From Planctomycetota bacterium (GTDB lineage Bacteria; Planctomycetota; B15-G4): 64,000 nucleotides of DNA. The notes below the pieces were generated by a model. The model had not been told where the DNA came from. It worked only from the letters and a program-made list of their open reading frames with translations, and ran no database searches. Made by a program: the position numbers and the translations under genes. Where the stretch lies: positions 160,001-224,000 of the forward strand of contig JBBQUR010000003.1 in assembly GCA_038212275.1 (NCBI GenBank). Reading direction: 5' to 3'. Below, piece after piece: positions 20,480-35,549 of this stretch; position 1 is the stretch's first letter; the number at the start of each line of letters is the position of its first letter.

Positions 20480-20513
20480 GACACGACCGCCTCGAGGACG
20501 ACGGCGGTCTGTC
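20480..20513. terminator. Hairpin between convergent rpsT and prenyltransferase-like gene
   Basis: GACCGCC (20485-91) pairs with GGCGGTC (20503-09), extended by GACA/TGTC. Confidence 0.35.
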
Positions 20514-22101
20514 AGTGCGCGCCCATCACGGTGGCGTAGCGGGAGTAGACCTCCAGCGTCAGTGCCAGGATTGCGGTCGAGTAGACCCGTCCCCCGGTGC
20601 TGCCCCACGGGTCGGGCTGAGGGTCCCAGCTGCCGCGCCGCTCGCCTTCCTTGTGCTGATGCCCGGCGATGGCCGGCAGGAGCGCCCGCTCCCAGGTCTT
20701 CCACGCGTCGCCGCCGACCTGGAAGAGCGCATAGCTGCCGTAGTACCAGAAGTAGAAGTCGCGCCGGCCCGGGAGCTCGTCGCTCCACAGCGGCGGCAGC
20801 GCGGCGATGGCGGCCGCGCCGCGCTTGACCATCTCCTGGTCGCCGGGCGCCTTCAGGTCCGGGTCCGCGAAGATGCGGCACAGCACGCCCACGGCCGTCA
20901 TCGACTGGCTCTGCGCGGCGGGCCACAGCGCCTCGCTGCCGGCCTCGCGCGCGGGGCGGCCTCCGCGGCTGGTGTAGCCGGTGATGCCGGTGTCCGGGTC
21001 CGTCATCTCGTCCAGGAAGGCCAGCGCGTCGCCAAGCGCGCGCTCGTCGATGCGCAGGCCGTACTTCTTCGCCACGGTCAGTGTCAGGATGGCCCAGCCC
21101 GTGACCGACATGTCGTTGGGCGTCGTGCTCATCTCGGGATGGAAGGGCCGGTAGCGCCACGCACCGCCCGGATTGCGGAGCGACGCGAGGTGCGCGAGGC
21201 CCCGTTCAGCCGGCGCGCGGAAGCGGAGGTCGCGGCCGGAGAGTTCCCAGACCTCCACCAGCGCGAGCGTCGCCAGCACGTGGTCGTAGGTGGATTGCGC
21301 CGAGGTCGGTGAGCCGAAGTTTCCGTCGGGCTGCTGCACGTTGACGAGGAAGCGCAAGCCATCGCGCACGGTGCGTGCGTGCTCGCCGTGGCGGTCCGTC
21401 TGACCGGCGCCCAGGAAGGCCAGCAGCGCGAGGCTGCTCACGCCGACGTCGAAGGCCGGACTGCCGGCGCCGTCGCAGAGCGTGTCGGCGCCGCGGTGGC
21501 CGCACTGCTCGTCGAAGGCGGCGCACGACCAGTGGCCGTCCGGCGACTGATGAGCCGCCAGCCACGCGAGCGCATCGGCGACCGGGCCGGCCACACGCGC
21601 GTCCGGCGCACCGCGACGGTGCGGGCCGCCGCCGCCGCCGTCGCCCTGGTTCAATCCACCGTCACCGGCGCCCAGCACGGAGTTGAGCCCGGCGCTGTCC
21701 CCGCCGCCGCCGGGAGGGGAATCGTCGGCCGCGTCACTGGCCGACTCGGTGTCGGGGGACGGCTGCTCGGTCAGCGTCGGGTCCTCGATCCGCGTGAGGT
21801 TCTCCTCGATGAGGCGCGGCTCGACGAGCGGCTCGAGCTGCGGCAGCAACTCGACATCGGGCAGCCGCTCGGCCACGAGCACGCGCGCGACCTGCAGCGA
21901 GGGCGCGGGCGCCGAGGTGGCGAAGGCCAGCAGCAACACCGCGTGCACGATGAGCGAGACGACGAGATACGGCGACTCGCGCAGCAGCTCGCGCAGCGCG
22001 TCCTCCAGGCTGCGCGGCGTCTGTTCCGCCGCGTGCAGGCCGTGCGCCTGCGTCTGTGCCGAGTCTCGACGGAGGACGTGCGAGCCGTGTTCGTGTGCCA
22101 T
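20512..22101 (-). CDS. Membrane-anchored prenyltransferase/squalene-oxidase-repeat (alpha/alpha barrel) protein, paralog 2
   Basis: TM helix SPYLVVSLIVHAVLL, acidic/Gly linker, QW-like repeats (WLAAHQSPDGHW, LVNVQQPDGNF, GAWRY, GSWDP). Confidence 0.88.
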   Translation of the reverse strand: MAHEHGSHVLRRDSAQTQAHGLHAAEQTPRSLEDALRELLRESPYLVVSLIVHAVLLLAFATSAPAPSLQVARVLVAERLPDVELLPQLEPLVEPRLIEENLTRIEDPTLTEQPSPDTESASDAADDSPPGGGGDSAGLNSVLGAGDGGLNQGDGGGGGPHRRGAPDARVAGPVADALAWLAAHQSPDGHWSCAAFDEQCGHRGADTLCDGAGSPAFDVGVSSLALLAFLGAGQTDRHGEHARTVRDGLRFLVNVQQPDGNFGSPTSAQSTYDHVLATLALVEVWELSGRDLRFRAPAERGLAHLASLRNPGGAWRYRPFHPEMSTTPNDMSVTGWAILTLTVAKKYGLRIDERALGDALAFLDEMTDPDTGITGYTSRGGRPAREAGSEALWPAAQSQSMTAVGVLCRIFADPDLKAPGDQEMVKRGAAAIAALPPLWSDELPGRRDFYFWYYGSYALFQVGGDAWKTWERALLPAIAGHQHKEGERRGSWDPQPDPWGSTGGRVYSTAILALTLEVYSRYATVMGAH

Positions 22102-22187
22102 GCCACGGCTCTAGGCACACATGCGGCGCAGGCAACGCAAACGGGCGCGCTGTCACGCGGAACGGGACGCCGCCGCGCGGCGCGAAC

Positions 22188-23753
22188 TCAGTGCGCGCCG
22201 ATGACCGACTCGTAGCGGTAGAAGACCTCTAGGGTCAGGCAGAGGATCGCCGTCGAGTAGACGCGCCCGCCTTCGCTGCCCCACGGATCGACCTGCGGAT
22301 CCCAGCTTCCCTGCAGCTCGCCTTCCTTGTGCTGATGGTCCGCGATGGCGGGCAGCAGGGTCTTCTCCCACTCCTTCCACGGCTGCTTGCCGTACTGGTA
22401 CATGGCGTAGGTGCCGTAGTACCAGAAGTAGAAGTCACGCCGGCCGGGCAGGTTGTCGTTCCACACCGGGGGCAGCGCGGAGATCGCCTTGATGCCCAGC
22501 TCGATCATCTCCTTGTTGCCGGGACGCTCGAGCTTCGGGTCCGCAAAGATGCGGCAGAGCACGGCGACGGACGTCATGGACTGGGTGTCCGCGAGCGGCC
22601 ATTGCACATCCTTGCCGAAGCCGCGTGCGGCGCCGCCGCCCCGCGCGTAGTAGCCCGTGATGCCGCTGGTCGGGTCGGTCATCTCCTCGACGAAGAGCAA
22701 CGCGTCCTCGAGCGCGGCAGGTTCGAAAGGCAGGCCGTACTCGTGGGCCAGCGTCATCGCCAGGATGGCCCAGCCGGTCACCGACACGTCGTTCGGGTGC
22801 GCGGCCATCTCCGGGTGCGTGGCGGCGTAGCGCCACGCGGCACCCTTGTTGCGCAATCTGTACATGAAATTGAGCGCGTTCTTGGCCGGCGTCTCGAACA
22901 GGTGGTTCTTGGTGAGCGCGTAGGCCTCGACCATCGCCAGCGTGGCAATGATGTGGTCGTAGGTGTACTGGCCGAACTGCGCGTTGCCGAAGTTGCCGTC
23001 GGCCTGCTGGACCTCCACGAGGTAACGAAGCCCTGCCTTCACGGTCTTGGCGTACTTGCCTGTCTTGTCGGTGTTGTCGGCGCCGAGGAAGGCGAGCAGC
23101 GAGAGGCCGGTGCAGCCGACGTCGAACTGCGGGATGCCCGTGCCGTCGCAGATCGTGTCGTCGCCCTGCTTGCCGCACTCCTCGTCGAAGGCGGCGCACG
23201 ACCAGTGGCCGTCGTCGCTCTGGTGGTTCTTCAGCCACTTGAGCGCGTCGTCCACGGCCTTGTTCAGCGGCTCGCCGCCCGCCTTGCCGCCGCCCTTGCG
23301 GCGGCCACTCAGCTTGCCGAAGCCCGCGCCGCCGCCGCCGCCGACGCCGATCACGTCATTCAGGCCCGAGTTCTCGAACTCGCCCTTGCCCTGGTAGATG
23401 TCTTCCGAAGGGTCGACCTCGTCGTTGGTCTCGGTGGCGTCCGTCTCCGAAATCGTCGGCTCCTCGACGATCACCTTCTCCTTCTCTTCGGGTGGCGGCG
23501 GGGGTGGCGGCGGAGGCGGCAGCGCCTCGGTCGGGACCTCGTTGCTCGCCTTGATGATCTGCGTCGGGGCCTTCTTCGGGCCGTCGCTTCCGGAGGCGAA
23601 AGCGATCAGCAGCACCGCGTGGATGAGGATGGAGATGACGAGATACGGCGAGTCCCGCAGCAGTTGCCGCAGCGTGTCCTCGAAGGTCGCGGCCTCGGGA
23701 TGACCCGGGTTGTGGCTGTGCTGGGAGACCAGCTCGGGAATCGCATTGGCCAC
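22188..23753 (-). CDS. Membrane-anchored prenyltransferase/squalene-oxidase-repeat protein, paralog 1
   Basis: Same architecture; poly-Pro linker; WLKNHQSDDGHW, YFWYYGT, GGRVYSTA motifs; GGAG before GTG start. Confidence 0.88.
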   Translation of the reverse strand: MANAIPELVSQHSHNPGHPEAATFEDTLRQLLRDSPYLVISILIHAVLLIAFASGSDGPKKAPTQIIKASNEVPTEALPPPPPPPPPPEEKEKVIVEEPTISETDATETNDEVDPSEDIYQGKGEFENSGLNDVIGVGGGGGAGFGKLSGRRKGGGKAGGEPLNKAVDDALKWLKNHQSDDGHWSCAAFDEECGKQGDDTICDGTGIPQFDVGCTGLSLLAFLGADNTDKTGKYAKTVKAGLRYLVEVQQADGNFGNAQFGQYTYDHIIATLAMVEAYALTKNHLFETPAKNALNFMYRLRNKGAAWRYAATHPEMAAHPNDVSVTGWAILAMTLAHEYGLPFEPAALEDALLFVEEMTDPTSGITGYYARGGGAARGFGKDVQWPLADTQSMTSVAVLCRIFADPKLERPGNKEMIELGIKAISALPPVWNDNLPGRRDFYFWYYGTYAMYQYGKQPWKEWEKTLLPAIADHQHKEGELQGSWDPQVDPWGSEGGRVYSTAILCLTLEVFYRYESVIGAH

Positions 23754-23863
23754 GACACATCTCCGGGGACGGCGCCGGTTTCGGGAGTCCCGGCGGGGAC
23801 CGAACTCGGAAGTCTAGGCAGACTCGGGAGACTTGGCAACACCGCCGCCACCCGGCGAGTCGT

Positions 23864-24945: not shown

Positions 24946-26595
24946 TCAGTAGAACTCGATCCAGTCCACTTCGATGTGGAAGGGGCCGTAGGCGGGCGGA
25001 GAAAACGGGCTGTTGCGCGCCTCGAGGTTCAGTCCCGTGATGTCCGCGCCGGTCCAGGTCACGGGCTTGCCGTAGCCGATCTGCTGCAAGGCCTGGAAAG
25101 GCACCTCCGCGACGGCCCATTCCTCGGTCACGCTCAGCGGTGCGGCGAAGACGTTGAGGTCCTTCACGGCGGCGCACTGCACGCTGAGATTCCCGTCGCG
25201 CGGGGTGCCGCGCAGGCGGAGGCGCAGGCCGGTGGAGGCCGACGCATCCGCGAGCAGCTTGCGCTCGCCGTCCCACAGCACGGCGACCCCCGCGAACGCG
25301 CCCCACGCGAAGCCCTGCTCCAGCGAGCCCTGCACACGCAACCGGCCCCCCTCGGCGTCGTCGAGCCACGCCACGGAACAGGACGACTTGCCGCCGGGCG
25401 CCATGGAATCGGCATACGCCTCCCACGCACCGCTCCATCGTCCGAGGACTCCGGGCGCACCGGACGCACCGGGCGCACCGGGCGCACCGGACGCACCGGG
25501 CGCGTCGGACGCACCGGGCGCAGCGGGCGCACCGGGCGCACCGGACGCGTCGGGCGCGCCGGGGGCCGCGGCGGTCAGCGCCTGCGCCGGCGACAGTCCC
25601 GCCTCCACGTAGAGCTGCAGCTCGAAGAGGGCGGACGGCCCGTGCGGCGTGAACGGGTTGCCCGCGTCCGTGCCGAGGCCGATGGGGATGCCGGCGTCCG
25701 CGAGCCGCTTGAGGTTGGAGAGGCAGCGCGCTTCGCCGCCGTCCTTCAGCACGTCGACCATCGGGCTGGCGGCGAGCGATGCGATCTGCGCCGTGTCGTT
25801 CAGTGCCTCCACGATGGCCGGGTGCAGCACCTGCGCGACGAGCGCGCCTCCGTACGGCCGCGCGCCGGCCACGCTGCGTGCGCCGCCGAACACGACCGCG
25901 AGTGTCGGCACGTAGGCCGTGCCCTCGCGCTTCATCGCGTCGATGAGCGCGTCGTCCACCTCGCCGAGGAAGACGCCGTGCGCCAGCGCGCGCGCGTGCG
26001 CTGCCACAGCCGTCTTCGCCTCGTCCAGCGTCCACACGTGACAGAGGAGCGGGAGCTTCGCCTCGCGGGCCTGCGCGCCGACGGCGGAGAGCAGCTCCAG
26101 GTCGAGCGTCGGCATCGCGGGCAGGCCGCCCCAGTGGCCGTGTTCGACGACGGCCTTGATCGCGTCGGGCTGCAGGGGGAGCAGCGCGGCGAAGCGTGCC
26201 CCGACCTCCTCCTCGGAGGTCACGGTGTTGCTGATGTCGCCGCCGAACTGCGTGGGGTGGCCGCCGGGCGCGGTGAAGGCGGCGCCAGCGGCATGCAGCG
26301 TGGCGAGGTCGTCGTCGCTGCGCGAGGCCTCGCGCAGCGCGAAGATCGTTGCGGGGTCGGCGTGCAGGTCGAGCACGCGCGTCACGCCTCAGTCGAGCTG
26401 GCTGGTCAGGTTGTCGGACGGACTCACCGCCGCAGCGAGCTGGTAGCTGCCGCCCGGCACGCTGACGTGCGTGTGCAGATCGATGAGGCCGGGCAGCACG
26501 GTGCACCCCGTCGCATCGATGAGCATCGCGCCGGCCGGCGCCGCGCTTCCGGGAGGAAGCCGCTGCGCGATGCGCCCGTCGCGCAGCACGATGAA
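24946..26595 (-). pseudogene. Disrupted amidohydrolase fused to a CIA30/CBM11-like domain
   Basis: IVLRDGRI...TVLPGLIDLHTH...QLD*GVTRVLDL with in-frame TGA at 26389-26391. N-terminal strands missing. The usual C-terminal GxxADL segment is replaced by 9-bp repeats before WEAYADSMAPGGKS. Confidence 0.75.
25452..25563. repeat. ~12 copies of a 9-bp unit (GCACCGGGC variants) encoding (GAP/DAS)n
   Basis: Read directly. Confidence 0.9.
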
Positions 26596-28220: not shown

Positions 28221-31200
28221 CTAGCGCCGCGCTTCGCTTGGCTTGCGCGGCGGCGGCGTCGCCGTCTCGGTGAAGCGCGCGAGCAGCCACGCCACGCGCT
28301 GGCTCGGGGTCTTTACGTCGCGCGGCCACGATGCGCGGCAGCGCCCGGGCGAGACGGGCATCGTTTCTCCGGGGCGGAACGGGCCGCGGCGCGCGTAGAG
28401 CTGGTCGTCGCCGATGGTGAGGACCACGCCGCCGAAACCGTCGGCGAGCACGGAGGACAGGCCCGCGAGGCGCACGAGGCGCCGCAGGCGGAACAGCTCG
28501 AGCAGTTCGCTCGCGGGGGCGGGCAGTTTGCCGAAGCGATCGACCATCTCGGTCTCGAGCGCTTCGGACGCTTTGCGGTCCGCGCTGGCGAGGCGCCGCA
28601 GCAGGCTCATGCGCACGGCGGCGTCGGGCACGTACTCGGCGGGCAGGTAGGCGGTCTGGCCGAGGTCGACCTCGATCTCGCCCGGCTCCTCCGGCACGCG
28701 CTGGCCCTTGGCGCGCGACACGGCGGCGCGCAGCAGGCGGCAATACATGTCGTAGCCGACGGTCATGATGTGGCCGCTCTGCTCCGCGCCAAGCAGGTTG
28801 CCCGCGCCGCGCAGCTCGAGGTCGCGCAGCGCGATGGGCAGGCCGCTGCCGAGGCTGCTGTATTCCTCGATGGCCTTCAGGCGTCGCTCGGCATCGCCGG
28901 CGAGGCGCTCCTTCGGCACCAGGAAGTGCGCGTAGGCCTGCACGTTCTCGCGCCCGACGCGGCCGCGCAGCTGGTGCAGATCCGCCAGCCCGAAGTGCTG
29001 GCTGTCCGTGACGATGATCGTGTTGGCGCGCGGGATGTCGATGCCCGACTCGATGATCGCGGTGCACACGAGCACGTCGAGGTCGCCGCGTCCGAAGGCC
29101 TCGATGACGTCGCGCAGCTGCTCCGGCGGCATCTGGCCGTGCGCGACGCCGGCGCGCGCGGTCGGCACCAGGCCGTGCACGCGGTCGGCCAGGCCCTCGA
29201 TGCTCTGCACGCGGTTGTGCAGCACGAAGACCTGCCCGCCGCGCGCGATTTCGTGCATGAGCGCGCGGCGCAGCATGCCGTCCTCGTCGTAGCCCACCTT
29301 GGTGATGACGGCGCGGCGCCCCGGCGGCGGCGTGTGGATGGATGCGATGTCGCGCAGGCCGGACATGGCCATGTGCAGCGTGCGCGGGATGGGCGTGGCC
29401 GAGAGCGTGAGCACGTCCACCGTGGAGCGCAGCTGCTTGAGGCGCTCCTTGTGCGCGACGCCGAAGCGCTGCTCCTCGTCCACGATGACCAGCCCCAGGT
29501 CCGGCAGCTTCACGTTCCTGCCCAGGATGCGGTGCGTGCCGATTAGGATGTCCACCTTGCCCGCGGCCGCGTCCTTCTCGACCTCCTTCAGCTCCTTGGC
29601 GCTGCGGAAGCGCGAGAGCACCTCGATGCGCACCGGCTCCTCGGCCATGCGCCGGCTGAAGGTCTCGTGGTGCTGCTCGGCGAGGATCGTCGTCGGCACG
29701 AGCACCGCCACCTGCTTGCCGCCCAGCACCGCCTTGTAGGCGGCGCGCACCGCGACCTCCGTCTTGCCGAAGCCGACGTCGCCGACGAGCAGCCGGTCCA
29801 TCGGCTGCGCGGACTCCATGTCACCGCGGATGGCGTGCCAGGAGCTGCGCTGGTCGGGCGTGTCCTCGTAGGGAAAGCTGGCCTCGAAGCGCTGCATGAG
29901 CGCGTCGTCCGGCGGGAAGGCGAAGCCCTCGCCGCCGCTGCGCGAGGCCTGCAGCGCGAGCAGCTCGCTGGCGAGGTCCGCCACGGCGCGCGCCACCTTG
30001 TCCTTGCGGTTCTTCCACGTCTTGCCGCCGATGCGGTCCAGCTTCGGGCCGCTGCCGCTCGCGCCGACGAAGCGCTCCACCAGATCGATGCGGCTGGCGG
30101 GCACGTAGAGCTTCGTGTCCTCCGCGAACTCCAGCACGAGGAAGTCCTCCTCGCCTTGCTCGCGCGGCCGGCGCTCCATGCCGGCGTAGCGCGCCACGCC
30201 GTGCGTGAGGTGCACCACGTAATCGCCCGGCTGCAACTCCGCGAGCGAGGACAGCGCCCGCGTGGCGACGACGCGCCGCGCCCGCGCGCGCCGCACCGGC
30301 CGCCGCCCGAGCAGCTCGTGGTGGTGCACGAGCACCGGCCCCGGCGCCGGAAAAGCGAAACCGCTCGCAAGCCGCCCGACGAGAAGCACCGGTGCGCGAC
30401 GTGCCGCGCCGGGGCGAGCAGAGCTTGCCGGCGTGCCCGCTTCGCTGTCCGAACCCAAGCCCGCCGCGGCGAGGCGTTCCGCGAGGCGCTCATTCTCGGC
30501 CTCGCTATCGGAGAGGATGAAGACGGCGCGGCCCTGGTCGCGCCAGTCGGCGAGGCGCTCGGACTCGGGGCGGCGGTCTTCGGCCACGCCGCGCAGTGAG
30601 CAATCGCTCTGTTCGTCGCCGAGGTCCAGAACGAAGAGATCGGCGCCGGGGCGCGTGGCGAGATCCGCGAGTGCGGCGGCCGACTCGCGCGGCGCGATGC
30701 CATGCTCGAAGGCCACTTCCGCGAGGCGGTCCTTCAGCGCCGGCGGATCCAGCAGCACGACGGCCGTGCCCTTCGGCAGTCGCGCGAGCAGGCGTCGCGA
30801 CGGGTCGCGCGGGATGTCGCCGCTGGCGTCGGGCGCGCGCGGCGCACCGCCCAGCGGCAGCTCCACGCGCGAGAGCTGCTCGACGGAGACCTGGCTGTCC
30901 ACGGCGAAGCGCCGCAGTTCCTCGAGCTCCTCGTCGTTGAACTCGAGGCGCACCGGGTGCTGCGCCGCCCACGGATAGACGTCGAGGATGTCGCCGCGCA
31001 GCGAGACCTCGCCCGGCGCGGCGACGAGCGTCACGCGCACGAGGCCCGCGGCCAGCAGCTTGTCGAGCAGAGCCTGCCGGTCGAGGCGCTCGCCGCGGCG
31101 CAGCACGAGCAGCGCGCCGTCGGTGTCGGGCAGCGTCTCGAGCAGCACCGGGCCGGGCACGACGAGCAGGCCGTCCCCGCGCGCGCCGAGCGAGGCCAGC

Positions 31201-31562
31201 GCGACGAGGCGCTCGCTGCGATTGGCCGCCAGCTCGGGGCCCTCGGGCAGGCCTTCTTCCTCGATGGGCAGCAGCGCGCAGGGCGTGCCCGGCAACCATT
31301 GCGAGAGGTCGAGCAGCAGCGACTCGGCGGCCTCTGCGGTCGGCGCGATGATCACGCCGCGCCCGCGCCCGGCGAGCAGTCGCGCGGCGGCCAGCGCGGC
31401 GGCGCTGCCGAAGAGTCCGCCGAGGCGCGCGCGCGCCTCGGGCCGAGCCAGCGCGGCGCGCAGCGGCGGCAGCGCGGCCAGCGTGTCGGACAGCAGCGCG
31501 AAGGCGGCGGTGCGCGCGGCGGCGAGCGCCGGCTCGTGAGCGGGCTCAGTCGGTCGCGTCAT
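28221..31562 (-). CDS. mfd: Transcription-repair coupling factor
   Basis: RGDILDVYP, CarD-like YVVHLTHG, GDVGFGKTEVA, DEEQRFG, SATPIPRT, QLRGRVGR, DLELRGAGNLLG, TRCF domain. Confidence 0.97.
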   Translation of the reverse strand: MTRPTEPAHEPALAAARTAAFALLSDTLAALPPLRAALARPEARARLGGLFGSAAALAAARLLAGRGRGVIIAPTAEAAESLLLDLSQWLPGTPCALLPIEEEGLPEGPELAANRSERLVALASLGARGDGLLVVPGPVLLETLPDTDGALLVLRRGERLDRQALLDKLLAAGLVRVTLVAAPGEVSLRGDILDVYPWAAQHPVRLEFNDEELEELRRFAVDSQVSVEQLSRVELPLGGAPRAPDASGDIPRDPSRRLLARLPKGTAVVLLDPPALKDRLAEVAFEHGIAPRESAAALADLATRPGADLFVLDLGDEQSDCSLRGVAEDRRPESERLADWRDQGRAVFILSDSEAENERLAERLAAAGLGSDSEAGTPASSARPGAARRAPVLLVGRLASGFAFPAPGPVLVHHHELLGRRPVRRARARRVVATRALSSLAELQPGDYVVHLTHGVARYAGMERRPREQGEEDFLVLEFAEDTKLYVPASRIDLVERFVGASGSGPKLDRIGGKTWKNRKDKVARAVADLASELLALQASRSGGEGFAFPPDDALMQRFEASFPYEDTPDQRSSWHAIRGDMESAQPMDRLLVGDVGFGKTEVAVRAAYKAVLGGKQVAVLVPTTILAEQHHETFSRRMAEEPVRIEVLSRFRSAKELKEVEKDAAAGKVDILIGTHRILGRNVKLPDLGLVIVDEEQRFGVAHKERLKQLRSTVDVLTLSATPIPRTLHMAMSGLRDIASIHTPPPGRRAVITKVGYDEDGMLRRALMHEIARGGQVFVLHNRVQSIEGLADRVHGLVPTARAGVAHGQMPPEQLRDVIEAFGRGDLDVLVCTAIIESGIDIPRANTIIVTDSQHFGLADLHQLRGRVGRENVQAYAHFLVPKERLAGDAERRLKAIEEYSSLGSGLPIALRDLELRGAGNLLGAEQSGHIMTVGYDMYCRLLRAAVSRAKGQRVPEEPGEIEVDLGQTAYLPAEYVPDAAVRMSLLRRLASADRKASEALETEMVDRFGKLPAPASELLELFRLRRLVRLAGLSSVLADGFGGVVLTIGDDQLYARRGPFRPGETMPVSPGRCRASWPRDVKTPSQRVAWLLARFTETATPPPRKPSEARR

Positions 31563-33615
31563 CGTCTTCCGGCGCGGCTTCGCTGGCGTTGCTCGCGTCG
31601 CTCGCGTCGCTGGCGTCGCTGGCGTCGCTCGCGTCGCCGAGGTCGCCGAGGTCCCCGCGGTCGCCGGCCTCGGCGGCATCGGCGGCCTCGGCGGCATCGG
31701 GCGCCGTGACGGCCTCGGGCAGCGCGCCTCTCGAAGCGCGCAGGCGGCGCAGGGCCTGCTGCGCCGCGCGCTGCTCGGCCTGGCGTTTGTTGCGACCGGT
31801 GGCCACGGCGAGCGAGACGCCGTTGAGCATCGCGGCCACGGTGAAGACCTTCTCGTGATCGGGGCCGGCCTCGCTCAGCACCTGGTATTGCGGAGCTGCG
31901 CCGAGCGATCCCTGCGTGAAGTGCTGCAGGTCCGATTTGTGATTGCTGCTGCGATGTCGGTCCGAGGCCGCCTCGATGAGCGGCGCGAAGTCCGCGCTGA
32001 TGATGCGGCGCACGGGCGACAGGTCGCCGTCGACGAAGACCGCGCCGAGCACGGCCTCCACGGCATCGGCGACGACGGACGCGGGCGTCCTGCCCGAGGT
32101 GCGGATGCCGGGCCCGAGCGTCAGCAGCGCATCGAGGTCCCAGTGCTCCGCGACCTTGCTGAGCGCATGCCGCGAGACCACGGCGCTCTTGATGCGCGAC
32201 AGCTCGCCCTCCTCGCGCTCCGGGAAGCGGTGGTAGAGATCCTGCGCGATGCACAGGCCCAGTACGGAATCACCCAGGAATTCCAGGCGTTCATTGGGGA
32301 GCTGCGCCTCGCTGCGCGCCGAAGCGTGGGTCAGCGCCATCGCGGCGAGGCACTTGTCGTGGAAGACGTAGCCGAGCACGCGCTCCAGCGCGGCGATGCG
32401 TTCCTCGTCGGCGGGCGTCGGCTCGGGAGCCGGCACCGCGTTGCGCGCGGCGGCGAGCCGGCGCCACTCGTCCATCGCGAAGCGGTCGGTCATGCCGGCG
32501 ACGTAATCACACACGCTTCGGCCGAGGCCGTCGCGCTCGATGCGCCTGCGATAGTCCGCGGGGAGCTGGCCCGGGTGGCCCTGGTAGTGCGTGACGATGA
32601 CGGCGATGGCCTCGCGCGCCGTGGCCGCCGAGCGCAGCACGCGCGGGTGCCGGTAGAAACGCTCCAGCAGGAAGCCCGCGAGCTGCCGATGCTGGGCGCC
32701 GCGCGCCGGCGAGAAGCGCACGAGGCGCCCCGGCTGCGCGGCGACGTCCTCGGCGTTGCGCGCGCCGCACGCCGCGAGGTGCTTGCTGGACTGCGCGACG
32801 ATGTCGTGCAGCGAGGTGCGCACGATGCGCGAGAGCACGGTCTTGCGCGCCGGCGGCACGCTGGCCGACGCGCCGCCCTCGCCGGCCGCGCGCGCCTCCT
32901 CGTCGGCCTGGCGCCAGATGTCCAGGCCCTGCAGATCCTCCTCGCGCAGGATGCCGGCGCGCAGGCCGTCCTCCAGGTCGTGGTGCTGATACGCGGTGCT
33001 GTCCGCGAGGTCCACGCACTGCGCCTCGAGCAGCAGGCCCGCGGAGACCGGCGCGCCGAGGCCCGCATCGCCGCCGTGCTTCAGGATGGAGCGTCGCAGC
33101 GCGTGCGTGAGGTTGAGGCCCTCGCGGTCCGGGTAGGGGCTCTCCAGCACATCGATGATGCGCAGCGCCTGGCGATTGTGATCGAAGGGCACGCCGCAGC
33201 GCTCGTCCAGGATGCGCTCGCCCTCGTGCCCGAACGGCGGGTGGCCGATGTCGTGCACCAGCGCGAGCGCCTCGCCGAGGCCCTCGTTGAGGCGCAGCGC
33301 GAGGCACAGGTAGCGCGCCATCTGCGCGACCTCCAGCGTGTGCGTCAGCCGCGTGCGGTAGAAGTCGCCCTCGTCGATGACGAAGACCTGCGTCTTGTCC
33401 TTCAGCCGCCGGAACGCCCCGCAGTGCACGATGCGATCGCGGTCGCGCACGAAGGCCGGGCGGAATGGGTCAGGCTCTTCCGCGACGGGCCGGGCGTCGT
33501 TGGCGTCGGAGAAGCAGGCGAGCGGCGAGAGCCACTCGTGCTCGCGGCGCTCGGCGTCGGTGCGGACGGAGATCTCGGGCGCTGCGAGATCGCTCCCGGG
33601 ATGGGGCGTGAGCAT
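31546..33615 (-). CDS. Fusion of dGTP triphosphohydrolase (HD family, Dgt) and ribonuclease III (catalytic domain plus dsRBD)
   Basis: N-half: RDRDRIVH..FRRLKDKTQVF, RTRLTHTLEV, HDIGHPPFGH, ADSTAY..HDLED, DYVAGMTD. C-half: ALTHAS, NERLEFLGDSVL, ADAVEAVLGA, KSDLQ, GPDHEKVF, KRQAEQRAA. No stop between them. Confidence 0.92.
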   Translation of the reverse strand: MLTPHPGSDLAAPEISVRTDAERREHEWLSPLACFSDANDARPVAEEPDPFRPAFVRDRDRIVHCGAFRRLKDKTQVFVIDEGDFYRTRLTHTLEVAQMARYLCLALRLNEGLGEALALVHDIGHPPFGHEGERILDERCGVPFDHNRQALRIIDVLESPYPDREGLNLTHALRRSILKHGGDAGLGAPVSAGLLLEAQCVDLADSTAYQHHDLEDGLRAGILREEDLQGLDIWRQADEEARAAGEGGASASVPPARKTVLSRIVRTSLHDIVAQSSKHLAACGARNAEDVAAQPGRLVRFSPARGAQHRQLAGFLLERFYRHPRVLRSAATAREAIAVIVTHYQGHPGQLPADYRRRIERDGLGRSVCDYVAGMTDRFAMDEWRRLAAARNAVPAPEPTPADEERIAALERVLGYVFHDKCLAAMALTHASARSEAQLPNERLEFLGDSVLGLCIAQDLYHRFPEREEGELSRIKSAVVSRHALSKVAEHWDLDALLTLGPGIRTSGRTPASVVADAVEAVLGAVFVDGDLSPVRRIISADFAPLIEAASDRHRSSNHKSDLQHFTQGSLGAAPQYQVLSEAGPDHEKVFTVAAMLNGVSLAVATGRNKRQAEQRAAQQALRRLRASRGALPEAVTAPDAAEAADAAEAGDRGDLGDLGDASDASDASDASDASNASEAAPEDDDATD

Positions 33616-34077
33616 GGGACAGCCTCGTGGGGCTGCCCGCGGCGGGAAGCGGCCCGACATCGCCAGGTCTCGCGCCGCCGCGCCGCATGCGCGTGCCGAG
33701 CGTCAGGAGTCCGGAAGGGTCGCTTGCCGTCATGGGCAGGGCGGACAGGATAGCGCGATCGACGGGGCAGTCGGTGGTCCGGAAAGCCGCGGCAGTCCGG
33801 CCATCGGCAGGCGCAGGTGGCGGATCGCCGCTCGTCAGGTCACCTTCCGGGATGCAGGCATCCTCGATCCAGGGTCGGTGGGTGACGCACGTAGGCGGCA
33901 TCCCGGAGGTGCCCATCATGCGGCGCACCGGCCCTGACTGTGTGGCTGACGACGGCTTGCGCCTGCATGCCGGTGTCTGCGCGCCGGGTGGGCCGCGCGA
34001 GAGGATCCAGGCGCTCGTGCCCGTGCGCTGTCACGCCGGCTTCGGCTCACGCCGGGCGTGCGCTGCCTGCAGCCAGG

Positions 34078-34310
34078 TCCGCGTCTGCGCGTTTCCAGCA
34101 GGTTGGTGCACGTGTTGTAGCCGGCGCGGCTGATCGAGAGTTGTGCGCGCGCGAGGCACGGCAGGAAGTCGGGGCCGAAGGGCCGCAGCACGAACGGGCC
34201 GGTCGGTGGCGCCGAAGTGTTCCCCGAGGCGGGCAAATGCCGGATCGGCGTGCACGAGCACCGCGTCGAAGCCGTCGCGCGGGCTTGCCAGCACGCGCTC
34301 GTCGTCTGCG
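34078..34310 (-). pseudogene. Remnant of a GT28-C-terminal-like predicted glycosyltransferase
   Basis: FDAVLVHADPAFARLGEHF in one frame abuts PFGPDFLPCLARAQLSISRAGYNT in another; these motifs are normally far apart in the protein. Confidence 0.6.
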
Positions 34311-34382
34311 CAGGCCTCCTCCTGCCGCGTCCGCGGAGCGGCTGTCAATGCGATCGGTCGGCCGGTAGGCTCCGCGATCGCC

Positions 34383-35549
34383 GTGGCGCACCGATCCTTT
34401 CGCTACCTCGACAGCCGACTCCGCGTCCACGCGGATGACGAGACTCTGCGCTGGCTGGAAGAGTTCCTGACTCCGTCGTTCGTGGTGGGTGACGACGCAG
34501 GTGACGGTGACGACGCAGGTGACGGTGACGACGCAGGTGACACCGACGGGCCAGCGCGCGCGCACTGGGTCGTTCGACTGCAGCGCGATGCGGCTCGCTA
34601 CGCGGCACTCTCGGCGACCGCGCTTCACGAGGAGCGCCGGCCGCTTCCTGCCTTCGCGCTCGACACCGAGGTGCGCTGCTACCCGGGACACGTGCACGAA
34701 GGCCAGTCGGTGCTCTTCGATGAACAGGACGAATGCCTGATCCGGCTGCACGAGGACGGCGCCGACATCGTCGCGCCCCCGCACTCGGCGGGCTGTCGCC
34801 TGGCGCTGCTGCGCGTCGTGCGCGAGCTCGCCGTGCAGGCGCACCGGCGCGTGAGCGGCGGGCTGTCGCTGCACGCAGCCGCGTTCGCCGTCGGCGAGGA
34901 GGCCGTGATCGTCGCCGGCCCGAAGAACGCCGGCAAGACGACGCTGCTGGTGGACGCGCTGCGCGGCGGTGAGGCTCGCTTCATCGCGAACGACCGGGCC
35001 TTCGTCACGCTCGGCTCTCGCACGACCTCGGTTTCCGGAGTGCCCACGGTGGTGAGCGTCAGACCGGGGACGCTGGAAAAATGCCCGGAGCTGCTGCGCG
35101 GCATCGCGCGCGTGCCGCGCACGTCGCTTCACTCGCTGGAGGAGATGCGGGCTGCGCTTGCGCGGCACGAAGGCCAGGGCGGCGCGGAGCCGCTGCGGAT
35201 CTCTCCCGCGCAGTTTCTCGCGTCGCTGAAGGCGAGCGCCGTGCGCGGCGGCCGTCTCTCCGCGATTCTCGCGTGCGAGATCAGCCAGGACATCCGGGGA
35301 CACCGCCTCGATCGGCTCGCGATCGCCGACGCGACCGCCGCGCTGGAGCGCTGCCGCTACGGCAGCGGCGCGCAGCGCACCGTGTTCTCCGATCTCGCTG
35401 GTCGCGGCGAGCTGCCCGACGACACCCGCCTTGCCGGCAAGCTGGCCGGCCGGATTCCCGTCTTCCGCTGCCGCCTCGGGCGCGGCGCCTGCGCTCCGCC
35501 GGAGGGCGCTTCGGCGCTGCTGCGCGAGGTGCTGCAAGGCGTGTCGTGA
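34383..35549 (+). CDS. HPr-kinase-related P-loop kinase
   Basis: LHAAA, GPKNAGKTT (Walker A) and IANDRAF motifs. Start uncertain. Contains three copies of an 18-bp repeat (GDDAGD) at 34488-34541. Confidence 0.78.
   Translation: MAHRSFRYLDSRLRVHADDETLRWLEEFLTPSFVVGDDAGDGDDAGDGDDAGDTDGPARAHWVVRLQRDAARYAALSATALHEERRPLPAFALDTEVRCYPGHVHEGQSVLFDEQDECLIRLHEDGADIVAPPHSAGCRLALLRVVRELAVQAHRRVSGGLSLHAAAFAVGEEAVIVAGPKNAGKTTLLVDALRGGEARFIANDRAFVTLGSRTTSVSGVPTVVSVRPGTLEKCPELLRGIARVPRTSLHSLEEMRAALARHEGQGGAEPLRISPAQFLASLKASAVRGGRLSAILACEISQDIRGHRLDRLAIADATAALERCRYGSGAQRTVFSDLAGRGELPDDTRLAGKLAGRIPVFRCRLGRGACAPPEGASALLREVLQGVS

Follow-up and report, generated by a model that had tools for sequence, protein, structure and literature searches.

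Introduction

How does one bacterial gene come to specify both an enzyme that hydrolyses deoxynucleoside triphosphates (dNTPs) and an enzyme that cuts double-stranded RNA (dsRNA), and what would its product do with the two? The question is raised by a gene on the minus strand of a 64,000-nucleotide stretch of DNA from a Planctomycetota bacterium (assembly GCA_038212275.1, contig JBBQUR010000003.1, positions 160,001 to 224,000). The whole of this stretch is called the window below, and all positions are given within it. The gene encodes a Dgt-type dNTP triphosphohydrolase, a linker, and a ribonuclease III (RNase III) with its dsRNA-binding domain (dsRBD) in a single open reading frame (ORF). 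The first-pass annotation of the window, made by a model from the letters alone, had offered two explanations: either dsRNA binding is coupled to the depletion of dNTPs, following the logic of SAMHD1, or two housekeeping neighbours became fused. Comparative data favour the second of these, and no direct support was found for SAMHD1-like coupling. The fused gene is genuine and appears to be vertically inherited; its architecture goes back to a single origin, probably in the ancestor of one family within an uncultured Planctomycetota class. The product is probably a bifunctional housekeeping protein that came about when neighbours in a conserved dgt–rnc–mfd cluster were joined by the loss of one stop codon, and in which both modules keep their usual jobs.

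The combination of Dgt and RNase III is a new domain architecture for both families. The first-pass annotation knew of no described Dgt–Rnc fusion, and this holds for the searchable literature, subscription-only papers aside, in which no description of the architecture was found; the sequences themselves have already been deposited publicly, where automatic annotation calls them “ribonuclease III”, “dGTPase” or the like, after one half only.

One Reading Frame for Two Enzymes

The fused gene is one uninterrupted frame, as seen both in the list of ORFs and in the sequence (G+C content of the window, 72%), and runs from an ATG at 33615 to a stop at 31546–31548. Its parts are as follows.

31546..33615, minus strand: the whole fused gene, 689 amino acids plus stop (ORF list and sequence; the upstream ATG at 33660 is an alternative start)
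32455..33615, minus strand: Dgt / dNTP triphosphohydrolase module, residues 1–387 (Pfam, NCBIfam, match to 2dqb)
32992–33351, minus strand: HD domain, residues 89–208 (Pfam)
32458–32721, minus strand: HD_assoc, residues 299–386 (Pfam)
32401..32454, minus strand: linker AAARNAVPAPEPTPADEE, residues 388–405 (18 residues), with no stop
31993..32358, minus strand: RNase III catalytic domain, residues 420–541, with the signature NERLEFLGDS (Pfam, NCBIfam, solved structures)
31741..31938, minus strand: dsRBD (dsrm), residues 560–625 (Pfam, E 4e-15; helix, three strands and helix in the structural model)
31549..31725, minus strand: acidic low-complexity C-terminal tail (DAS)n, residues 631–689 (tandem repeats; predicted local distance difference test, pLDDT, about 30)

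Every structural detail of the first-pass description, namely one 689-residue frame comprising Dgt, linker, RNase III, dsRBD and acidic tail, was borne out, as was a linker free of stop codons, which here also lacks ATG, GTG and TTG; the strand, which that description had left unstated, is the minus strand. The longest version of the frame begins at the ATG at 33660, which would add 15 residues and give 704; the start at 33615 is more plausible, because the similarity of relatives sets in near residue 10–18 of the query.

Conservation of the Open Junction

Could the frame be an artefact, in which a stop codon was missed or a frameshift joined two genes during sequencing or assembly? The source genome (4.65 Mb) stands in 40 contigs and is 91% complete, which leaves some room for such an error. 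Against this, the same open junction is present in 13 other genomes of the family to which the window belongs in GTDB (family f1), from 12 other genera, each with a full-length match at 56–72% identity. Read by script, all 14 of the f1 genomes in which both halves are assembled (window included; 13 genera in total) have them in one frame, with no stop between Dgt and RNase III. In one of the two remaining genomes of the family, G006, the fused gene is cut by the end of a contig, and in the other, G010 (84% complete), both genes are unassembled; no stand-alone rnc was found in either. A further 12 fused loci from genome contigs have the same match statistics as f1 genomes and are not counted as extra evidence.

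The junction is also spanned by proteins from several other sources. The architecture search that had been proposed for the fusion, carried out in a collection of 5.8 billion proteins, gave 49 clusters at 90% identity (P0001–P0049) with HD_assoc and RNase III on one chain, 45 of which carry all five Pfam entries; they are 54–81% identical to the query, and the contigs that carry them reach lengths of 1.88 and 5.29 Mb in some cases. The organism named by the source is a planctomycete for seven clusters and “Pseudohongiellaceae” for one (P0045), so the taxonomic spread among named clusters is confined to Planctomycetota apart from this label. P0045, given as “Pseudohongiellaceae bacterium” (Gammaproteobacteria), sits inside the fused clade at 55% identity; a discrepancy of binning or labelling is more probable here than a second lineage.

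The junction, for which the first-pass annotation had wanted raw reads, was re-checked in an independent re-assembly and has neither a stop nor a frameshift there: a 4763-nucleotide Logan contig of run X1 covers 31400–33700 with 0 differences and 0 gaps. Run X1 is probably the window's own sample, in which case the re-assembly is independent and the sample is not. A 312-nucleotide contig of an unrelated run, X3, bridges the junction at 32381–32692 (26 differences, 2 gaps). Runs X2–X13 contained only 5–17% of the sampled words, and at 90% likeness they gave short pieces from relatives, together with many 21-letter “joints” of the kind typical of GC-rich repeats. The RNA run among them, X13, gave only pieces of 151 letters or fewer at 90–99% likeness, and so no evidence of transcription of the fused gene. 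With the other family members, the 49 protein clusters and the re-assembly (albeit probably of the same sample) all speaking against it, the probability of an artefact is practically nil, and this reading is refuted for practical purposes.

The fused gene is also the only source of either enzyme in its genome. The search for another rnc or dgt, which had likewise been suggested, returned exactly one RNase III match and one Dgt match, both of which are the fused gene.

Origin of the Fusion

The GTDB class to which the window belongs comprises 42 species genomes in one order and five families, and within this class the fusion is confined to family f1. Outside f1 the class has 26 genomes, and by the coordinates of the matches 19 of them have a co-oriented pair with dgt directly upstream of rnc: 12 of 12 in family f2, 1 of 1 in f3, 5 of 5 in f5, and 1 of 8 in f4. 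Six f4 genomes have the two genes 1.5–4.9 kb apart, and one has them on different contigs. Six f4 genomes were examined by script, and in five of them an insert breaks the otherwise class-wide adjacency; at loci L126–L130 (genomes G033, G021, G024, G018 and G030), 1.5–3.7 kb are inserted between dgt and rnc.

When frames were read by script at 27 loci outside f1 (in 19 of the 26 class genomes, and 8 outside the class), none was fused. The possibility that all relatives encode two separate genes, which the first-pass annotation had named as an argument against its own reading, is thus true of these 27 loci and untrue of family f1. In five of the 27, the two genes share a frame behind one or two stops. 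Two of these belong to family f5 (G025 and G028), where a single TGA separates dgt from rnc and where 18–19 in-frame codons, the stop included, lie between the end of Dgt and the conserved N-terminal helix of RNase III, a spacing equal to that of the 18-residue linker of the fused protein. The other three (G131, G043 and G106) belong to other classes and likewise keep both genes in a common frame, interrupted by one or two stops. The unfused dgt–rnc(–mfd) pairs of the sister families resemble the fused gene in order and orientation (37–49% identity), but in these pairs dgt terminates at a TGA stop and rnc is initiated at a start of its own.

In trees of 41 sequences, 14 of them fused, the fused sequences form one group with a single origin, supported at 100/100 in the Dgt tree and at 100 in the Shimodaira–Hasegawa-like approximate likelihood ratio test (SH-aLRT) in the RNase III tree, which was built as a quick version. 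The stem branches of the fused clade are the longest of the family stems, with 0.88 changes per site for Dgt and 0.66 for RNase III, compared with 0.33–0.62 and 0.20–0.43, respectively, for the other families of the class. Since all other families and classes have the genes split, fusion is taken as the derived state, rather than fission of an older fused gene. The simplest history, and most likely the true one, would be the loss of a single stop codon in an f1 ancestor that had the in-frame arrangement. The linker can then be read as the former stop codon, the intergenic spacer and the first codons of rnc.

Did the same fusion arise elsewhere? An exhaustive phmmer search of 1.84 billion cluster representatives returned 36,055 hits; only one of the best 150 of these, P0047 (694 bits), covers both halves, and the hit ranked second (311 bits) is Dgt only. 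An independent fusion elsewhere should score about 400 bits and take that second rank; a single fused representative is seen among the best 150. Several candidates were set aside on inspection. Of four longer or multi-stretch hits, P0257 and P0258 have repeated RNase III domains, and P0188 and P0210 are plain Dgt proteins with longer N-termini. G043 and G106 were listed with open frames of 736 and 727 amino acids, but direct translation shows stops after dgt. Apparent Dgt–Rnc–Mfd triple fusions (1810 amino acids in G015 and 2059 in G004) have a stop after the RNase III tail, as found by translating L031 and L025, whose match statistics are identical to those of L009 (G015) and L005 (G004).

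The Dgt Half

The N-terminal half appears to belong to the Dgt dNTPase family, an assignment made at subfamily level only. It matches PF01966 (HD) with 52.2 bits against a cut-off of 22 and PF13286 (HD_assoc) with 74.9 against 22.2, and it passes the NCBIfam dGTPase subfamily model TIGR01353 (245.6 bits, cut-off 152.35); no equivalog-level dGTPase model of the NCBIfam PRK01286 series was reached, the best being NF002326 with 338.7 bits against 390, and the others lower. The HD metal ligands H92, H121, D122 and D202 are present, as aligned to TT1383, and are invariant across an alignment of 26 fused proteins (mean column identity 57%), on which the statements about conservation below are also based.

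TT1383, a dNTP triphosphohydrolase from Thermus thermophilus, is the closest solved structure (2dqb, with 6 chains in the PDB entry): residues 37–388 align with chain residues 22–375 of 376 at E 1.5e-76. The two proteins thus align end to end, with the same Pfam layout of HD and HD_assoc and with all HD metal ligands kept. They differ in that TT1383 is a stand-alone protein of 376 amino acids, whereas the C-terminus of the Dgt part in the fused protein runs on into RNase III. TT1383 hydrolyses all four dNTPs and requires activation by dNTPs with Mg2+ (PMC11071499). Bacterial homologues of the family are hexamers made of three parallel dimers, examples being the enzymes from Leeuwenhoekiella and Escherichia coli; in the hexameric E. 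coli dGTPase, single-stranded DNA (ssDNA) bound at the dimer interface is activating (PMC9257424).

The E. coli enzyme and SAMHD1 share the HD-domain dNTPase chemistry with the fused protein, and both are precedents for the modulation of a dNTPase by nucleic acid. Both are distant from it: the E. coli structure 4x9e matches with E 5e-16 over residues 54–138 only, and SAMHD1 is only distantly related to the Dgt half. Presumably, neither carries an RNase III or dsRBD module.

Some dGTPases act against phages, and the same fold could serve that end here: the RNase III and dsRBD part would sense phage dsRNA and switch on a defensive dGTPase, which would deplete nucleotides. The HD dNTPase fold is homologous to that of the anti-phage enzymes, the PADLOC dGTPase model matches with 266.7 bits (that library gives no cut-off), and there are weak matches to the NCBIfam anti-phage dGTPase models. 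However, the curated cut-offs of the latter are missed by a wide distance (NF041026, 186.7 against 400; NF003701, 145.9 against 383), the better matches are to housekeeping models of the PRK01286 type and to TT1383, and the gene is the only Dgt and the only RNase III of its genome. It is also a core gene in its setting: its position beside mfd is syntenic across the class, rather than in a variable island, and its neighbours are housekeeping genes. A role in defence is unlikely, and phage dsRNA as the trigger of nucleotide depletion is a very improbable account of this protein.

The RNase III Half and the Acidic Tail

The C-terminal half appears to be a full member of the bacterial class-1 RNase III group. 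It has the Pfam domains Ribonuclease_3 (442–530), Ribonucleas_3_3 (420–541) and dsrm (560–625), the last being PF00035 with 56.6 bits against a cut-off of 23, and it passes the RNase III equivalog TIGR02191 with 200.2 bits against 166.25, over model positions 2–219 of 219. The catalytic acidic residues E442, E445 and D449 and the second pair, D517 and E520, are all present; among the fused proteins, E445, D449 and E520 are invariant, and E442 and D517 are conserved in at least 90%. Residues 408–626 align with 7–224 of 226 in a bacterial RNase III of known structure (7r97, E 3.2e-41). The catalytic signature, the second acidic pair and the dsRBD are shared with class-1 enzymes in general (PDB 7r97, 2a11, 1o0w and 1yyw); the difference is that here the enzyme is the C-terminal half of a protein of 689 amino acids and ends in an acidic disordered tail of 59 residues. 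RNase III must dimerise in order to cut dsRNA.

The tail (residues 631–689) is encoded by 9-nucleotide tandem repeats at 31580–31718 and is predicted to be disordered. Among the fused relatives it cannot be aligned, but many of these tails are acidic. An acidic, disordered C-terminal tail rich in Ser, Asp and Gly is also present on an RNase III that is not fused, from another class of Planctomycetota (G106, L105); therefore, the tail is not a consequence of the fusion.

The Linker and the Predicted Structure

Neither the sequence nor the length of the linker is constant among the fused proteins. It has about 18 residues in the shortest and about 80 in the longest, a Gly/Ser-rich insert in one member, and a loose RxxV as its sole recurring pattern. 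An AlphaFold2 model of the fused protein, built from the 26-row alignment, has a mean pLDDT of 77.8, with both domains mostly at 80–95, and a predicted template modelling score (pTM) of 0.57. The dsRBD takes the alpha-beta-beta-beta-alpha fold. Between the two halves, the model has a coil at 392–400 (about 9 residues), and the block 391–400 has a mean pLDDT of 64. The pTM of only 0.57 and the lower confidence in the linker are what would be expected of two bodies that are each well folded but whose orientation to one another is not confidently fixed. A prediction of the complex between the Dgt part (1–392) and the RNase III part (404–632), from 26-row alignments and without controls, gave a score of 0.00 and a mark of 0.32, which speak neither for nor against contact. 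Both halves thus have the look of functional enzymes maintained by purifying selection, with a tether between them.

A tether derived from a former intergenic spacer might still be a place where two products are made from one gene, either by internal initiation or by proteolysis of the linker, in which case the fusion would exist at the level of the gene only, and Dgt and RNase III would be separate proteins in the cell. In several fused relatives, as read in the proteins, a Val does stand two or three residues ahead of the conserved N-terminal helix of RNase III. Yet the codon at that point in the window is ATC (Ile), the linker has none of the three start codons named above, no Met or Val is conserved at that column among the 26 proteins, and the loss of the stop has been kept in every f1 member examined. 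Separate products from this gene are, in our judgement, quite improbable.

Function of the Fused Protein

How, then, did the protein arise, and what might it do? In the ancestor, dgt and rnc would have been adjacent and co-oriented, and probably translationally coupled, within a dgt–rnc–mfd cluster. Loss of the stop codon between them would have put both in one frame, with the former spacer becoming the linker. The Dgt half, judged from its family, would convert dNTPs into deoxynucleosides and triphosphate, thereby trimming the dNTP pool, and the RNase III half would process precursors of ribosomal RNA and other dsRNA. The Dgt part would oligomerise in the manner of its hexameric relatives, and RNase III dimers would form between neighbouring chains. 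The main effect of the fusion would be to fix co-expression and a 1:1 stoichiometry.

Several points weigh against a protein of two modules that simply keep their old jobs. That the dNTPase and RNase III activities are independent is a presumption about proteins read from their genes, and the accumulation of a single polypeptide is likewise predicted from the gene only. With about 9 coil residues in the model, the short linker would place geometrical constraints from the Dgt oligomer on the dimerisation of RNase III. The long stem branches of both halves could reflect adaptation after the fusion, or sparse sampling. Finally, the adjacency of dgt and then rnc within Planctomycetota is a classical signature of a functional link. 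It is seen in 19 of the 26 genomes of the class, as given above. Outside the class, 143 Planctomycetota genomes with a completeness of at least 85% were sampled, and at least 11 of them, from seven families, have it: G043, G106, G081, G131, G127, G148, G164, G111, G051, G179 and G129. These were found by comparing the coordinates of Dgt and RNase III matches by eye; most others of the 143 have dgt and rnc on different contigs or far apart. Among 68 RNase III loci from other phyla, with flanks of up to 6 kb, none has a Dgt nearby. The pairing appears to be a recurrent trait of Planctomycetota.

Two further observations concern the same sample. At locus L109 (G081:C545), the rnc beside dgt is split over frames −3 and −1, in two tblastn pieces; either the gene is frameshifted or the assembly, which consists of 1010 contigs, is in error at this point. 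Several well-assembled genomes (e.g. G044, G082, G107, G128, G145, G161 and G176, of family f8; 99–100% complete) have an RNase III match and no TT1383-type Dgt match with the query used; therefore, with that query, the dNTPase is not found in every Planctomycetota lineage.

The main rival reading is a coupled enzyme, in which binding or cleavage of dsRNA by the RNase III and dsRBD part allosterically controls the hydrolysis of dNTPs, or the reverse. It would have its analogues in E. coli Dgt and SAMHD1, dNTPases that nucleic acids modulate, and the unfused neighbours might have formed a non-covalent complex even before the fusion. Conservation of the adjacency in Planctomycetota, with none at the sampled loci of other phyla, retention of the fusion in 14 of 14 f1 genomes across 13 genera, the long stems of both halves and the short linker are all in keeping with coupling, and the activation of the hexameric E. 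coli dGTPase by ssDNA (PMC9257424) is a precedent for it. On the other side, no feature of the sequence is specific to coupling: both modules are canonical and the linker is unconserved, the predicted model has no confident packing between the domains (pTM 0.57), and it is dNTPs that regulate TT1383, the nearest relative to have been characterised (PMC11071499). Coupling of the two activities is rather unlikely. It is distinctly doubtful, too, that the fusion makes permanent an older, Planctomycetota-specific partnership of Dgt and RNase III: a hexamer would carry three RNase III dimers, dsRNA would tune the hydrolysis of dNTPs, or dNTPs would gate RNA processing, and the unfused pair of the sister lineages would already form a complex. 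Were such a partnership true, bacteria would have, in a housekeeping role, an equivalent of SAMHD1 and other dNTPases that sense nucleic acids.

The bifunctional housekeeping protein thus stays the favoured reading. New chemistry is not to be expected from two textbook enzymes. Their combination is the unusual feature: an entire Planctomycetota family tethers its only RNase III by a very short linker to a dNTPase with hexameric relatives. This can be seen as a clean “Rosetta-stone” case in which the steps are still visible, from neighbours, to in-frame neighbours with one stop, to fusion. It is a testable hint of a link between control of the dNTP pool and RNA processing, and it raises a question of structure: how could a scaffold of six subunits accommodate a nuclease that works as a dimer? 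Should the modules prove independent, the gene is a tidy example of evolution from operon to fusion, and a note for annotators, as its relatives are now named after one half.

Neighbouring Genes

The gene that follows rnc in the window is mfd, as it is in the f1 relatives and in the five unfused loci of the class that were looked at.

28221..31562, minus strand: mfd, the next gene downstream (Pfam; start inferred from an alignment of relatives)

Its Pfam domains are UvrB_inter, CarD_TRCF_RID, DEAD, Helicase_C and TRCF. The frame is open from 31874, and the start was placed by aligning N-termini translated from stop to stop, as tblastn with the low-complexity N-terminus of Mfd was too noisy. 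Similarity to the Mfd proteins of 11 relatives sets in immediately past the ATG at 31562, where the Mfd of one relative also starts, with an aligned MTR. The overlap of 17 nucleotides between the fused gene and mfd, which the first-pass annotation had given as a fact, holds if mfd starts at 31562, the best-supported position for a start that is itself inferred. The other neighbours of the fused gene are housekeeping genes as well (MlaA-like and beta-lactamase-fold genes).

Further from the fused gene, there are two adjacent paralogous ORFs on the minus strand at 20512–22110 and 22188–23813 (532 and 541 codons from stop to stop), with weak matches to the C-terminal domain of squalene-hopene cyclase (terpenoid-cyclase repeat), at 23.4 bits (below the cut-off of 26.1) and 32.8 bits. 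A 480-codon ORF at 24946–26388, on the minus strand, encodes a collagen-like Gly-X-Y stretch (score below the cut-off) followed by a CIA30 domain (29.5 bits). On the plus strand, 34143–35549 is an ORF of 468 amino acids with no Pfam match and a G+C fraction at third codon positions (GC3) of 0.83; near 34490–34560, it has the tandem peptide repeat GDDAGD three times, and this stretch is periodic also on the opposite strand and in other frames.

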